Counted from the stretch's first letter, positions 3,096 to 7,876 are shown. The stretch: 13,136 nt of DNA from Bdellovibrionia bacterium (GCA_045805065.1 JBJMMA010000137.1:1-13136); one strand, 5' to 3'. Notes: generated by a model not told the origin, from the letters alone. Made by a program: numbers and translations.

Positions 3096-4547
3096 CTAAA
3101 CCCGAGCCTGAGCCGCTCCAGCCGAAGGCGAAGCCTTCTTCTGGAAAATATGAATCGCATGCCCAAGAGTGGCTTCGGCAGCTTCCATCAGCGTTTCAGG
3201 AAGAGTTGGATGCGCGTGAACGGTCAGAGCAAGATCTTCAACCGTTGAGCCCATCTCAAGAGCGAGAGCGGCTTCAGCGATCAAGTTCGATGCTTCAGCG
3301 CCGACAATGTGAACGCCCAGGAGGCGTCCCGTCTTCTTGTCGCCGATCATCTTCACAAGACCGTCTGGCTCGTTCATAGAAAGAGCACGACCGTTGGCTG
3401 CGAGTGGGAAGTTTCCAACCATGATGTCGAGGCCCTTTTGACGAGCTTCGGCTTCAGAGAGACCCACGGTTGCGACTTCTGGATCGGTGAAGATCACAGC
3501 AGGCATTGCAACGACGTCGTAAACAGTCTTCATGCCGGCAATCGCTTCAGCTGCAACGATTCCTTCTTTGGAACCCTTGTGCGCAAGAAGCGGCTGACCT
3601 GCGATGTCGCCGATGGCGTAAATGCTTGGAACAGAAGTGCGGCGTTGAGCATCGACTGGGATAAAGCCCTTGGCGTCGAGCTTGATGCCGGTCTTTTCAA
3701 GGCCAAGGTTTTCGGAGTTTGGCGTACGACCGATCGTCACCAGGACTTTGTCGAAAACTTGGGTTTCAGCCTTGCCACCTTCTGGAGTCAAAGTCACTTC
3801 GACGCCCTTGGAGGTTGCCTTCGAGAACGCGACCTTGGTCTTGAGCATCGTCTTCATGCCCATCTTATCCATGCGGCGTTGAACGACCTTGGTGAGGTCT
3901 GGATCGACCATTCCAAGCAAGCTTGGGAAGGCTTCCACAACGGTAACCTTGGTTCCGACCTTGGCGTAGAACATGCCAAGCTCAAGACCGATATATCCGC
4001 CACCGATGCAGAGCATGGTCTTTGGAACTTCGTTTTGAGCCAGAGCGCCCGTGCTGTCGAGGATCGTCTTGTTATCGACCGTGAAGCCAGGAAGCGCTGC
4101 CGGGCGGGAGCCCGTTGCAACCACGCATTGATTGAACGTGAGAGCCACGGTGCCTTCAGCCGTTTTCACTTCCATTGCTTTCGCGGAAGTAAACTTTGCT
4201 TCGCCTTTGATCACGGTGCAGCCGTTTGCCTTCAAAAGCTGGGAGACGCCGCCCGTGAGTTTCTTCACGACGGATTCTTTCCAGCTGATGAGCTTAGGCA
4301 TGTTGACCTTAGCGCCGGTGACTTCGATGCCCATATCAGCGGAGTGATTCAAGCGCTCAAAGAGAGTACCTGCGGTGATCAGCGCCTTGGATGGAATGCA
4401 TCCGATGTTCAGACACACGCCGCCCATTTCGCCGCGTTCAACGACGGTGACTTTCTTTCCAAGCTGAGCCAGGCGGATCGCGCAGACGTAGCCTGCAGGG
4501 CCTGCGCCCAGGACGACAACATCAGCGGTTTGCTGTTGAGTAGCCAT
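3096..4547 (-). CDS. lpdA: Dihydrolipoamide dehydrogenase (E3)
   Basis: GAGPAGY FAD motif, GGVCLNIGCIPSK redox disulfide, GGGYIGLE NAD motif, AIGD, HAHPTLPE; AAGGA RBS upstream. Confidence 0.97.
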   Translation of the reverse strand: MATQQQTADVVVLGAGPAGYVCAIRLAQLGKKVTVVERGEMGGVCLNIGCIPSKALITAGTLFERLNHSADMGIEVTGAKVNMPKLISWKESVVKKLTGGVSQLLKANGCTVIKGEAKFTSAKAMEVKTAEGTVALTFNQCVVATGSRPAALPGFTVDNKTILDSTGALAQNEVPKTMLCIGGGYIGLELGMFYAKVGTKVTVVEAFPSLLGMVDPDLTKVVQRRMDKMGMKTMLKTKVAFSKATSKGVEVTLTPEGGKAETQVFDKVLVTIGRTPNSENLGLEKTGIKLDAKGFIPVDAQRRTSVPSIYAIGDIAGQPLLAHKGSKEGIVAAEAIAGMKTVYDVVAMPAVIFTDPEVATVGLSEAEARQKGLDIMVGNFPLAANGRALSMNEPDGLVKMIGDKKTGRLLGVHIVGAEASNLIAEAALALEMGSTVEDLALTVHAHPTLPETLMEAAEATLGHAIHIFQKKASPSAGAAQARV

Positions 4548-4599: not shown

Positions 4600-5907
4600 T
4601 CAGATGCTCGAGAGCAAAAGCAGGCTTGGATTTTCGATGTACTTGATGAACTGGTTCATGAACTCAGCTGCGATCGCGCCATCCACGATGCGGTGATCGA
4701 GCGAGATCGAGAAGTACGTCCAATCACGGATCGCGATTTCTTCTTTTCCATCGCGATTGATGACGACTGGCTTACGAGCGATCTTATTGAAGCCCAGGAT
4801 TGCGACTTCAGGATAATTAATGATCGGCGTTGCCAACACGCCACCGATCGAACCTGCGTTCGTCAGTGTAATAGAGCCGCCCTTGAAGTCTTCGTTGGTG
4901 AGCTTGTTTGCACGAGCACGATCAACGATGTCTTGAATGTCGCGAGCCAGTTCAAGGATCGACTTGTGCTCAACATTCTTGACGACTGGAGCGGTCAAGC
5001 CGTCATTGGTCTGAATCGAAAGACCGATATTGTAGTAGTGCTTGATCACGATTTCGCCGCGTTCTTCATCGTAAGAAGAGTTCATGATCGGGAAGTTACG
5101 CAAACACGCAACCATCGCCTTCATGATGAATGGCAAGTAAGTGACCTTGATGCCTTGCTTTGCGCCAATGTCTTTTGCCATTGCGCGAAGCTTGACGAGC
5201 TCGGTTGCGTCCGCTTCTTCAACATAAGTGAAGTGCGCTGCCGTGCTCTTGGAGAGATGCATCTTCTCGGAGATCTTCTTGCGAAGTCCACGCATTGGAA
5301 TGCGCTCTTCCCCGCCCTGTGGAAAGGTGCGAGCTGCGCCCTTGGCAACAGAAGCAGGTCCTGCAGACACTGCACCTGCGCCGCTGAGCCATTTCTCGAT
5401 GTCTTCTTTCATCACGCGGCCGTTCGGGCCGGATGGAGAAATCTGCGCGAGGTCCACGCCTTGTTCACGAGCAAAACGGCGGGTCGATGGAGCCGCTGGA
5501 ACGCGGTTTCCAACGTGCGTTTCCATGGCAGGAGCTGCCACTGGAGCAGAAGATGCCGCTGCGGATGGAACGACTGCGCGAGTTGGCTCTGGAGCTTTTG
5601 CTTGAACAGCGGCCGGAGCTGCAGGAGCTGGAGCTGCGTGAGATGCCGCAGGAGCAGAAGCTTGGGCCGCGCCGCCAACGCCTTCAAACGAAATCATCAG
5701 CTGGCCAACGGTCACAACCGAGCCTTCTTTTGCGTGAATTTCCTGAACCTTGCCCTTGAAGGCAGATGGGATTTCAACCGTTGCTTTGTCGGTCATGATT
5801 TCGCAAAGAGGCTGGTCATAGTTCACTTGATCGCCTGGCTTCACGCGCCACTTGATCAGTTCGCCTTCATGAACGCCTTCGCCCAACTCAGGAAGTTTGA
5901 ATTGCAT
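4600..5907 (-). CDS. Dihydrolipoamide acyltransferase (E2) of a 2-oxoacid dehydrogenase complex (PDH/BCKDH type), single lipoyl domain
   Basis: MQFKLPELGEGVHEG, lipoyl Lys in TDKAT, Ala/Pro linker, E3-binding domain AAPSTRRFARE...SGPNGRV, catalytic DHRIVDG. Start ATG 5907 overlaps the lipA 3' end by 20 nt. Confidence 0.96.
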   Translation of the reverse strand: MQFKLPELGEGVHEGELIKWRVKPGDQVNYDQPLCEIMTDKATVEIPSAFKGKVQEIHAKEGSVVTVGQLMISFEGVGGAAQASAPAASHAAPAPAAPAAVQAKAPEPTRAVVPSAAASSAPVAAPAMETHVGNRVPAAPSTRRFAREQGVDLAQISPSGPNGRVMKEDIEKWLSGAGAVSAGPASVAKGAARTFPQGGEERIPMRGLRKKISEKMHLSKSTAAHFTYVEEADATELVKLRAMAKDIGAKQGIKVTYLPFIMKAMVACLRNFPIMNSSYDEERGEIVIKHYYNIGLSIQTNDGLTAPVVKNVEHKSILELARDIQDIVDRARANKLTNEDFKGGSITLTNAGSIGGVLATPIINYPEVAILGFNKIARKPVVINRDGKEEIAIRDWTYFSISLDHRIVDGAIAAEFMNQFIKYIENPSLLLLSSI

Positions 5908-6937
5908 TTTGTTTAGCTGCCTTTCGTTTTTCGATAACGCCTTGGATGAAAAATTCACCTGCTCTGTAGCTGGAACGGACCATCGGGCCCGAAGCTACGT
6001 ACAAGAACCCATGACTCTCGGCTTGCTTGCCGAGACGCGTGAACTCTTCCGGAGAATAGTATTTTTCCACCGGCAGATGCTGAAGCGATGGGCGCAAATA
6101 CTGCCCGAGCGTCAGCACGTCCACGTCGTAAGTACGCAAATCCGTGAAGGCTTCGTCGAGCTCGGTTTCTTCTTCTCCCAAGCCCAACATGACCGCACTC
6201 TTGGTGAAGAGCTCGTGCCCGATGGATTTTGCGTAGTTTTTGGCCAATCGCAGGGTTGTCAGCGACTGGACATAAGCCGCGCGAGGATCTCTCACGCGGT
6301 ACTGAAGTCTTTCCACGGTCTCGATATTATGTGCGTAAACATCGAGCTTGGAATCGACAATCATCTGAATGGCTTCAAGATCGCCCCGGAAATCTGGAAC
6401 GAGAGCCTCGACAATAATACTTGGATCAAGCCTTTTGATCTCGCGAATGGTTGCCGCGAAATGACCCGCGCCCCCATCCTTTAAATCATCGCGATCCACG
6501 GAAGTGAGAACGACATAGTGCAGGCCAAGCGCCGCAACGCTTTCCGCAATATGATACGGCTCCTCAGGATCCAGCGGTGGCGGCGTGCGAGACGTTTTGA
6601 TTGCGCAGAAGCGGCACGCACGGGTGCAGGTGTCACTTCCCAACATGAATGTCGCGGTGCCACTAGACCAGCACTCAGCCACATTCGGGCAATGAGCCTC
6701 TTCACAAACGGTATGAAGCCCACGCTCACGGAGCAAGCCCTTGATCTGGGTATAAGACTCACCTGCTGGCGGACGAATCCTGAGCCACTCAGGCTTCTTA
6801 CTTGCCATAACCTGGGCCGCCTTGGAGGGCGACATCGGGCGAGCCAAAGGACGAGCAGTCGCCTGCCCTAGAGCCTTTTCGGCTGCGCTAGTGAGTGGAG
6901 GAGTCTCCAAAATGGGAAGCTCTCGAAAAATGGCCAT
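5888..6937 (-). CDS. lipA: Lipoyl synthase (radical SAM)
   Basis: KPEWL, CEEAHCPNVAEC auxiliary cluster motif, CTRACRFC radical SAM motif, TLGQYL, VRSSY. Start set at ATG 6937 because a promoter and terminator lie within the ORF-track extension; a downstream Met start is possible. Confidence 0.96.
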   Translation of the reverse strand: MAIFRELPILETPPLTSAAEKALGQATARPLARPMSPSKAAQVMASKKPEWLRIRPPAGESYTQIKGLLRERGLHTVCEEAHCPNVAECWSSGTATFMLGSDTCTRACRFCAIKTSRTPPPLDPEEPYHIAESVAALGLHYVVLTSVDRDDLKDGGAGHFAATIREIKRLDPSIIVEALVPDFRGDLEAIQMIVDSKLDVYAHNIETVERLQYRVRDPRAAYVQSLTTLRLAKNYAKSIGHELFTKSAVMLGLGEEETELDEAFTDLRTYDVDVLTLGQYLRPSLQHLPVEKYYSPEEFTRLGKQAESHGFLYVASGPMVRSSYRAGEFFIQGVIEKRKAAKQNAIQTS

Positions 6938-6950
6938 AATCGGTCCGACA

Positions 6951-6979
6951 GTTATAGTGACGCGGACCCTAAATTTCAA
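6951..6979 (-). promoter_or_regulatory. sigma70-type promoter of the lipA operon
   Basis: Minus strand TTGAAA (6979-6974), 17-nt spacer, TATAAC (6956-6951). Confidence 0.7.
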
Positions 6980-6987
6980 GAACTCAT

Positions 6988-7023
6988 AAAAAAGCCCGAT
7001 GGAGATAAATCCCCACCGGGCTT
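6988..7023 (-). terminator. Rho-independent terminator
   Basis: Minus strand AAGCCCGGTGGGGAT-TT-ATCTCCATCGGGCTTTTTT. The stem's G.U wobbles form only in the minus-strand RNA, and it ends in a U6 run. Confidence 0.88.
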
Positions 7024-7062
7024 GAGAGAGAGGAGTAGTATGAGCCGCTTCCTGCGGACACT
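6988..7062 (-). ncRNA. Candidate ~75-nt sigma54-dependent small RNA
   Basis: Bounded by a -24/-12 promoter and an intrinsic terminator. Predicted RNA: AGUGUCCGCAGGAAGCGGCUCAUACUACUCCUCUCUCUCAAGCCCGGUGGGGAUUUAUCUCCAUCGGGCUUUUUU. No AUG-initiated ORF inside. Confidence 0.65.
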
Positions 7063-7072
7063 CCCTCGCATC

Positions 7073-7088
7073 TGCAGTTAGAATGCCA
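7073..7088 (-). promoter_or_regulatory. sigma54 (RpoN) -24/-12 promoter
   Basis: Minus strand TGGCATT-CTAA-CTGCA versus consensus TGGCACG-N4-TTGCW, with exact GG-N10-GC spacing; predicted +1 is an A at about 7062. Confidence 0.7.
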
Positions 7089-7198
7089 AATGGTTTCGAG
7101 GCCCTAAATTTAAGCCTTACGCCTTTCCTGACGCCTTTTAAGAGGGCCTTAGAGCGAGCAGAGCGCCGCCCCCTTTCCTTCCCAGCCCCCCACCAAAT

Positions 7199-7231
7199 GC
7201 AAATGAAACGCATTGAGATCGCATTTTGATC
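7199..7231. repeat. Three imperfect tandem 11-bp repeats, candidate enhancer (UAS)
   Basis: GCAAATGAAAC / GCATTGAGATC / GCATTTTGATC, located about -137 to -169 from the predicted sRNA start. Confidence 0.45.
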
Positions 7232-7250
7232 GATCACTGCTTCGGAGCCA

Positions 7251-7280
7251 CCGTTTCGGATCCGCCATAATCCGAAACGG
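7251..7280 (-). terminator. Hairpin downstream of the 7325-7876 gene (terminator or 3' stabiliser; no U tract)
   Basis: CCGTTTCGGAT-N8-ATCCGAAACGG, a perfect 11-bp stem 45 nt after the stop codon. Confidence 0.55.
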
Positions 7281-7324
7281 CATCTACATCGAGGAGAGGA
7301 GAGAGAGTTGGGCAGAAGAACGCT

Positions 7325-7876
7325 TTAAAATACTGAACGACCCACCGAAACCTGAGGGGCTTGAGACTGACCGGCATCCACCAATCCTCCGCTCCCCAGG
7401 CCTGAGCCATTTAAACTATCTGAAATACCAGCCACCTTGGTTTGACCCTGCGAAACAGCGCCACACCAAACCGTCGGTAGATTCACCGAAGGCTGATAGA
7501 CATCGTAGAAAGTCATCGGAAGGACGTTGCAGCCTGAAGAATCGAAATGAAAACTGGGATTAAAGCCTGCCGTCCCGACCGCTCCCGGAAGTTGGCCATG
7601 ACCATCCCAGACCGGGGTCCCTGCCGGAATCCCCGCCAGCATCTGAGACTGAATCTGGTTGAAAAGAGCGTTCATAGGCAAAATATTATTCGGGCTTTGA
7701 AAGGTATTGAGGATGCTGGCAACGTTCACGGAGCCTGGCAGATTGGCGTACTGACCAAAGGCTGCCGCAAGCCCGCGCGTGGCCTGGCGATGAGTCTTTG
7801 CCAGGTGATGCTGTGGAACCGCCACAATAGCCAGAGCGAGAGTCACTAGAGAAATCTGCGCTGCTTTGGTTTTCAT
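7325..7876 (-). CDS. Hypothetical exported protein
   Basis: 183 aa, AGGAG RBS, N-terminal basic+hydrophobic signal (MKTKAAQISLVTLALAIVAV), two Cys, Gly/Ser/Gln/Asn rich, own sigma54 promoter. No family recognised. Confidence 0.8.
   Translation of the reverse strand: MKTKAAQISLVTLALAIVAVPQHHLAKTHRQATRGLAAAFGQYANLPGSVNVASILNTFQSPNNILPMNALFNQIQSQMLAGIPAGTPVWDGHGQLPGAVGTAGFNPSFHFDSSGCNVLPMTFYDVYQPSVNLPTVWCGAVSQGQTKVAGISDSLNGSGLGSGGLVDAGQSQAPQVSVGRSVF

Follow-up and report, generated by a model that had tools for sequence, protein, structure and literature searches.

A conserved small RNA gene with a sigma-54-type promoter and a candidate anti-Shine-Dalgarno tract upstream of lipA in Bdellovibrionota

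Several bacterial small RNAs (sRNAs) besides Qrr and GlmY/GlmZ are sigma-54-dependent, including Pxr, CrcZ, and NrsZ, and at luxO-qrr1 and glrR-glmY the activator is encoded beside the sRNA. Unpaired pyrimidine-rich motifs complementary to the Shine-Dalgarno (SD) sequence are found in the AbcR/'cuckoo' sRNAs of alpha-proteobacteria and in RsaE/RoxS of Firmicutes, where they are C-rich and lie in hairpin loops. To our knowledge, these anti-SD sRNAs are not sigma-54-dependent, and we know of no cyanobacterium with RpoN. Qrr and GlmY/GlmZ are described as sigma-54-dependent (PMC10162802, PMC3045617). The cyanobacterial sRNA Yfr1, 54–69 nt in length, is described as two stem-loops, one at the 5′ end and one acting as terminator, on either side of ~20 unpaired nt with the ultraconserved ACUCCUC...; the conserved motif ACUCCUCACAC lies in the 16–20 unpaired nt between the hairpins (PMC2190773). 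Yfr1 is reported to repress its targets by occluding the ribosome-binding sites (PMC2796815). For Bdellovibrio bacteriovorus, the attack-phase sRNAs APsRNA1-7 and merRNA are given as 98–655 nt long, three of them with FliA promoters; sigma-54 dependence is stated for none, and homologues are reported to be lacking outside B. bacteriovorus (PMC3627812).

The locus described here lies in a 13,136-nt stretch of DNA from a Bdellovibrionia bacterium (GCA_045805065.1 JBJMMA010000137.1:1-13136), which was analysed whole and is called the window. All features of the locus are on the minus strand.

7876-7325, minus strand: unannotated 183-aa gene upstream of the spacer, read in the window sequence
7089-7324, minus strand: spacer stretch of 236 nt between the 183-aa gene and the sigma-54 promoter, without long ORFs
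7216-7246, minus strand: candidate upstream activator sequence (GATCGATCAAAATGCGATC... block), weakly indicated by within-genus BLAST conservation
7088-7073, minus strand: sigma-54 (−24/−12) promoter TGGCATTCTAACTGCA, a motif in the sequence that is kept in relatives
7062-6988, minus strand: sRNA of ~75 nt, AGUGUCCGCAGGAAGCGGCUCAUACUACUCCUCUCUCUCAAGCCCGGUGGGGAUUUAUCUCCAUCGGGCUUUUUU, delimited by covariance model, fold, and BLAST conservation
7059-7044, minus strand: 5′ hairpin with a G-C closing pair, a U bulge, a CCGC/GCGG stem, and an AGGAA loop, from the fold
7044-7024, minus strand: unpaired CU-rich seed CUCAUACUACUCCUCUCUCUC, candidate anti-Shine-Dalgarno sequence, from the MFE and centroid folds
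7023-6988, minus strand: intrinsic terminator, stem 7023-6992 and U6 6993-6988, from terminator prediction
6979-6951, minus strand: sigma-70-type lipA promoter, TTGAAA 6979-6974, 17-nt spacer, TATAAC 6956-6951
6937-5888, minus strand: lipA (lipoyl synthase), ATG at 6937, TIGR00510 390.8 bits
4600-5958, minus strand: E2 acyltransferase, after lipA
3096-4547, minus strand: E3 dihydrolipoyl dehydrogenase, after E2, TIGR01350 559.6 bits

The window also holds genes for a PAP2 protein, a lipoate ligase-like protein, the Tad pilus, and an HD protein, and ARAGORN found no tRNA or tmRNA in it.

As far as the sources describe them, Qrr and GlmY/GlmZ are like this unit in having a −24/−12 promoter, in being short terminated RNAs, and in occurring in genomes with RpoN and many enhancer-binding proteins. 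The unit differs from luxO-qrr1 and glrR-glmY in that its 13-kb window contains no gene for such an activator, and from Qrr, GlmY/GlmZ, Pxr, CrcZ, and NrsZ in the type of seed and in having no match to them at the Rfam gathering score. It shares a pyrimidine-rich seed with AbcR/'cuckoo' and RsaE/RoxS and has no Rfam match to them. In architecture, it is like Yfr1 (RF01116) as published, with two stem-loops around an unpaired ACUCCUC tract. However, only ACUCCUC of the reported Yfr1 motif ACUCCUCACAC is matched, being followed by UCUCUC rather than ACAC; the alignment to Yfr1 reaches 14.2 bits (E = 3.9) versus a gathering score of 38; and the unit belongs to a different phylum and has a sigma-54 promoter. 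We read the likeness to Yfr1 as convergence rather than membership. APsRNA1-7 and merRNA share the phylum with the unit and, by their published description, are different and longer RNAs.

The first-pass annotation had assigned the unit to no named family. Consistent with this, Rfam 15 gave no match at gathering score in the whole window, and the best sub-threshold alignments (NsiR1 17.4 bits, anti-hemB 15.4 bits, and Yfr1) were mostly driven by the terminator. No description of this RNA was found in the openly available literature searched. The unit is a new sRNA family, with sigma-54-dependent and anti-SD sRNAs both already known as kinds of regulator.

The promoter had been predicted to start transcription at A7062. 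The −24 GG of TGGCATTCTAACTGCA falls at 7087/7086 and the −12 GC at 7075/7074, and the sigma-54 rule indeed puts the +1 at A7062, the 5′ base of the sRNA, ten bases from the motif. No sigma-70 promoter for the unit was flagged on the minus strand. The pattern TGGCAY-N6-TGCA has one match in the window, where shuffles lead to an expectation of 0.07, and 21 matches on both strands of the 4.2-Mb genome, where rough arithmetic gives a chance expectation of ~16. The lone match is weak evidence because of this small genome-wide excess, and it is the conservation of the promoter that convinces. At least seven of the other 20 sites lie directly upstream of an SD-ATG, and the pattern is therefore a marker of genuine sigma-54 promoters in this genome.

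The RNA folds far better than shuffled sequence. The 77-nt RNA 7062-6986 has a minimum free energy (MFE) of −32.4 kcal/mol and a z-score of −5.3, and none of 200 shuffles was as good. In the hairpin, CCGC (7057-7054) pairs with GCGG (7048-7045) around the AGGAA loop (7053-7049), closed by G7059-C7044. The unpaired stretch between the 5′ hairpin and the terminator measures from 13 nt in the MFE fold of the 77-nt RNA to 21 nt (7044-7024). The terminator has 14 pairs, eight of them G-C, and is predicted on the minus strand only. Much of the anatomy proposed by the first-pass annotation has therefore held: a strand-specific terminator with six U (6993-6988), a discrete non-coding unit of ~75 nt, here found to be kept as a whole across many genera, and an unpaired tract that proved longer than first stated (CUCAUACUACUCCUCUCUCUC). 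The 5′ hairpin stands in part. Its inner stem and loop are confirmed, whereas the outer AGUGU/AUACU pairing is present in this sequence and fails as a conserved feature.

Conservation of the unit was followed with BLAST and with covariance models. When the region 7330-6940 was compared with 40 relatives by BLAST, 15 of the 24 further family members matched, with alignments that start at 7062-7057 and run to ~7018 at 89–100% identity; the remaining spacer aligns only in the genome of the same genus. The exact 25-mer GCGGCUCAUACUACUCCUCUCUCUC is present in 22 public records, all with Oligoflexia, Bacteriovoracaceae, Bdellovibrionales, or Bdellovibrionota in their titles, and the window is placed by these in a lineage of Bdellovibrionota that is uncultured. 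A covariance model, R1, was built from 24 distinct copies (alignment A1), and its match in the window spans exactly 6988-7062 (80 bits with R1, 77 bits with R2). Within the family, R1 finds the unit in 43/75 genomes, in 28 of the 38 that are of high quality, and in 30 of 48 genera; many of the 32/75 family genomes where R1 has no match are incomplete. In the order as a whole, 48/116 genomes have a match, with other families contributing 2/2 (f5), 1/1 (f6), 1/1 (f8), and 1/2 (f12), and R1 finds nothing in families f10 (0/19) and f2 (0/10).

Promoter and structure are kept together across these genera while their flanks have diverged. TGGCAY-N5-6-YGCA is carried by 46 of 53 distinct copies and ends 8–11 nt before the model match in 43 of those 46, and the bases flanking the motif cannot be aligned between relatives. 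Of the seven copies lacking the promoter, five belong to a hairpin-less variant and one is truncated where its contig ends, which leaves a single copy (L081) in which no promoter can be recognised. A second model, run on a phylum sample of 151 genomes, gave only two matches outside the order. These are short terminated units with the same ACUACUCCUCUCUC tract, at L092:1501-1568 (minus strand) and L093:1501-1575 (plus strand), and both are without the 5′ hairpin and the sigma-54 promoter. The seed may predate, and have spread beyond, the particular arrangement of promoter and hairpin.

Compensatory base changes support both stems. When 66 matches are aligned by fitting to the model, pairing extends to 98.2% of cells and each of the 12 pairs has changed on both sides; this level of pairing was equalled by none of 500 shuffles and fell to at most 65% when partners were slid by one column. 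All four pairs of the inner stem (99% of cells paired) and all seven modelled pairs of the terminator (99.2%) take part in the double changes. A model-fitted alignment leans towards its model, and the raw sequences were read as well; there too the inner stem, CCGC/GCGG here, varies in a compensatory manner in divergent copies, as CUGC/GCAG, UCGC/GCGA, GCUC/GAGU, and CCCA/UGGG. The outer AGUGU/AUACU pairing occurs in this genus and in a small number of others, and variation in the 5′ bases of relatives means that it is not conserved.

The loop has the consensus ANGAW. Among 48 distinct copies that bear the hairpin, it reads AGGAA in 15, AAGAU in 12, AGGAU in eight, AAGAA and ACGAU in three each, and AAGAC in two, with five further variants once each; ACGAC and GAUAA are among the loops without GGA. 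The tract is kept more strictly in sequence: UACUACUCCUCUCUCUC (7040-7024) is invariant in the 24-copy alignment, the CA before it (7042-7041) is retained in at least 90% of these copies, and the core ACUCCUCUCUC, with one mismatch allowed, is present in 51/53 distinct copies. Some copies have extra CU repeats, and the steps in (CU)n length are not multiples of three.

A GTG-started ORF of 449 aa, 5888-7237, is in the lipA frame and spans the whole sRNA and its promoter, so that a caller preferring the longest ORF would hide the RNA, as the first-pass annotation had warned. The coding reading is ruled out and this ORF is over-extended, because the CU length steps are non-triplet and the N-terminus of LipA is conserved at 6937; in most loci, the tblastn alignments of relatives begin at residue 1 of the ATG 6937 reading.

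The relation to lipA is one of neighbourhood. The earlier proposal that lipA has a promoter of its own agrees with the TTGAAA-17 nt-TATAAC arrangement after the terminator, and with the occurrence of the unit away from lipA. In relatives, the interval from the terminator to the downstream gene repeatedly contains a TATAAC or TATAAG box. Here, the TATAAC ends 13 nt before the lipA ATG with no Shine-Dalgarno sequence between, and a transcript from this promoter would have a leader of only ~7–8 nt. In four loci (L071, L074, L075, and L076), comprising second copies and one genus, the unit is followed by an SNF2/SWIM helicase gene, and the SNF2-related product begins MLF(L/I/S)NQI(K/R)KDFQ. A cysteine/histidine stretch in L076 is taken to be a SWIM-type zinc finger on our own reading rather than by a Pfam match. 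An Mrp/NUBPL Fe-S carrier gene lies downstream in L011, and in L072 the unit is convergent with a DUF454 gene. INDEPENDENCE from lipA, the sRNA unit is a gene in its own right, because the downstream gene differs between loci and has its own −10 box after the terminator. Read-through from the unit into lipA is possible.

The genome encodes the machinery that a −24/−12 promoter calls for, with an rpoN gene (PF04552 218 bits, 506-aa open frame) and 17 strong Sigma54_activat (PF00158) genes. Dependence on sigma-54 in vivo is presumed from the promoter and this gene content, as is control by an enhancer-binding protein. The block 7246-7216 is the only part of the spacer 7089-7324 to match the same-genus genome in BLAST (90% identity). 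A[AT]TGCG occurs within 260 nt upstream of the promoter in 17/44 loci of relatives versus 5/33 downstream control stretches, and 7216-7246 is possibly an activator site on this sequence evidence. A search for an upstream motif shared with other genomic sigma-54 sites gave no convincing case, and the C16 candidate is a terminator palindrome.

Public RNA libraries offer a weak hint of transcription. One rhizosphere metatranscriptome run contained a small share of the window's words, and one 176-nt contig from an RNA library covers 6900-7064 at a depth of 3.3, with five mismatches and an 11-nt insertion, and is therefore from a relative. One end, at 7064, is only 2 nt away from the predicted +1, and the contig continues across the terminator into lipA, which hints at a 5′ end near the +1 and at some read-through. 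The hint is weak because contigs show neither ends nor strand and RNA libraries can contain DNA. Beyond two contigs, nothing in the RNA runs covers the stretch, and uncovered parts are uninformative.

That the locus is a genuine sRNA gene, conserved and equipped with a sigma-54-type promoter, is very probable. In the mechanism we favour, RNA polymerase with RpoN would start at about A7062 from the −24/−12 promoter only with an active enhancer-binding protein, and the intrinsic terminator, with its U-tract at 6993-6988, would stop transcription. The 5′ hairpin and the terminator hairpin frame the single-stranded 21-nt pyrimidine tract CUCAUACUACUCCUCUCUCUC, whose ACUCCUC core agrees in polarity and sense with the anti-Shine-Dalgarno end of 16S rRNA. 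The most likely action of the RNA is pairing in trans with ribosome-binding regions (GGAG/GAGAG) of target mRNAs, and this pairing would block 30S binding, such that translation of the targets would be repressed under the inducing signal. Trans-acting anti-SD repression is favoured because of the Yfr1-like design and because the complement of the tract, GAGAGAGAGGAGUAGUAUGAG, resembles an SD followed by AUG. As a whole statement, an independent sigma-54-driven 75-nt RNA gene with trans anti-SD action is held with moderate confidence.

Candidate targets were sought with RNAduplex by pairing the seed against positions −35 to +12 of 3,882 translation-initiation regions from a rough gene set. Across these regions, 66 reach −20 kcal/mol or lower with the real seed versus 43, 51, 75, and 104 with shuffled seeds, and there is no enrichment. 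The top 20 genes ranked by contiguous helix have no functional theme by Pfam annotation. Allowing up to three mismatches genome-wide, the perfect 17-nt complement has four sites besides its own gene, none at a credible start, and the best-placed gene start within the window ranks no higher than 1,310th. Feedback on an activator, in the manner of Qrr and LuxO, was considered with three of the 17 enhancer-binding-protein genes ranked 4th, 29th, and 33rd. It is rejected as chance because the pairing energy of the best of them, the NtrC-type activator C134, is −26.7 kcal/mol here and collapses to −7 to −18 kcal/mol in five orthologues of 72–94% identity. Extended complementarity at the flagellin and hutH (histidine ammonia-lyase) sites is likewise lost in five sRNA-bearing relatives, leaving no conserved target (0/3) among the candidates with orthologues (flagellin, NtrC-type activator, and hutH). 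Two more candidates, C59 and C144, have no orthologue in the five sRNA-bearing genomes searched. Because no conserved target was found, anti-Shine-Dalgarno action is still inferred from the design of the RNA, and any individual target is putative. Two neighbouring genes at C68:19668-24704, of 776 and 783 codons and without a Pfam match, have the start region GGGGAAUGGGGUAGUAU(U)AUGA in common, with partial complementarity to the seed's 5′ half.

Known CsrA sponges carry many GGA motifs each, and in Bacillus, which shares the csrA-fliW arrangement, the antagonist of CsrA is a protein, FliW, and not an sRNA. The first-pass annotation had suggested a dual function with CsrA binding through the GGA loop, and this part of it is not supported. 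Each RNA has a single GGA, which lies in the loop in 26/48 distinct hairpin-bearing copies, and csrA adjoins fliW in this genome (C164:1923-2640). A conserved role as a CsrA sponge is unlikely. Among flagellin paralogues of relatives (L125-L134), several leaders have two GGA-containing boxes, ...CACGGAGGAU...AACGGAGNCUAAU|AUG, a pattern that we take to be the one expected for CsrA-FliW control of flagellin.

A second type of CU-rich RNA accompanies the unit in some relatives. It has no 5′ hairpin, lies 170–500 nt upstream of the sigma-54 copy, and takes the form ...ACUCCUCUCUCUC followed by its own terminator, whose stem resembles CCCGNUUUCUUCC...GGAAGAAAGCGGG. TTAAAAGTTTC often precedes it, and there is no −24/−12 motif.

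L004, L006:1324-1397, L007, L009:~1357-1440, and L028:600-665: hairpin-less type, upstream of the main copy
L034, L039, L067:2010-2090, L070:1326-1389, and L079: hairpin-less type, upstream of the main copy
L078 and L080: hairpin-less type standing alone

CTCTCTC is present in 11/44 upstream regions. The hairpin-less type looks like a sibling sRNA with a common seed and a different promoter. In the window itself, 7314-7249 (minus strand) holds a CU-rich tract, CAACUCUCUCUCCUCUCCUC, located 11 nt past the stop codon that ends the 183-aa gene, and a 13-pair hairpin (CCGUUUCGGAUUA/GGAUCCGAAACGG) without a U-tail follows; this may represent a sibling-type copy that has decayed. A second copy of the unit in the window (7307-7252) was rejected, with 6.1 bits under R2 (E = 3.1), a fold z-score of −1.4, and absence from the same-genus genome.

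Other explanations of the locus were weighed against an independent trans-acting sRNA. One is that the promoter serves as a conditional leader or second promoter, giving sigma-54-driven read-through into lipA-E2-E3 or SNF2, with the terminator acting as an attenuator and the short RNA as a by-product. That the unit is followed immediately by lipA in the same orientation in 34/45 distinct loci, other families included, that a same-strand gene follows in most non-lipA loci as well, and that the RNA-library contig 7064-6900 crosses the terminator all speak for it. However, lipA has a complete sigma-70-type promoter after the terminator, with a −10 box that recurs in relatives, the terminator is strong (14 pairs and U6), and the downstream gene varies between loci and is even convergent in L072. 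No alternative anti-terminator pairing is evident, and a leader gives the invariant 21-nt single strand no role. We consider this explanation unlikely as the main function, and the leader and sRNA roles are not mutually exclusive. The simplest alternative, in which the hairpin and U-tract do no more than end the gene upstream (7325-7876) and the promoter motif matches by chance, could draw on the ~16 pattern matches expected per genome against 21 seen and on the absence of a flagged minus-strand sigma-70 promoter for the unit. It is contradicted by conservation, with promoter, hairpin, seed, and terminator at fixed spacing in 46/53 distinct copies from more than 30 genera, amid unalignable flanks and differing upstream genes, and we regard such a coincidence as exceedingly improbable.

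The RNA might instead act as a decoy for a protein, with the GGA loop capturing CsrA or the CU tract capturing a pyrimidine-binding protein (S1, cold-shock, or KH). The invariance of the seed, over 21 nt or more, is longer than a typical seed needs, and protein binding could account for it. Hfq was not found in the genome, which is 94% complete; this counts against trans base-pairing as well as for a decoy. CsrA is encoded, and this copy has an AGGAA loop. Against CsrA stand the lone GGA per RNA, kept in 26/48 copies, and the fliW gene next to csrA. A decoy is quite unlikely overall. Similarly doubtful is a broader proposal built on the sibling RNAs, in which a lineage-wide pair sharing the ACUCCUCUCUC seed under different promoters, the hairpin-less form lying just upstream in at least 10 loci, mimics the 3′ end of 16S rRNA and retunes strong-SD mRNAs globally, while partial read-through from the sigma-54 copy couples the lipoate/2-oxoacid dehydrogenase operon to the same signal. 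If true, this would be a combined trans and cis device undescribed for any sigma-54 sRNA. The preferred reading remains an independent, sigma-54-driven RNA that would act in trans on ribosome-binding sites.

Bacterial predators are among the Bdellovibrionota, a phylum in which hardly anything is known of post-transcriptional regulation. Published sRNAs found for it are limited to the eight attack-phase RNAs of one species (PMC3627812). The present unit is a computationally well-supported family with a recognisable input, sigma-54 and an enhancer-binding protein, and as such it gives a defined point from which to approach a signalling circuit in bacteria that are uncultured. Its covariance model is ready for use in annotation, and the over-extension of lipA across the unit serves as a warning. 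The repetition of the published Yfr1 design in an unrelated phylum suggests that a hairpin, an ACUCCUC single strand, and a terminator together form a recurrent means of blocking ribosome-binding sites.
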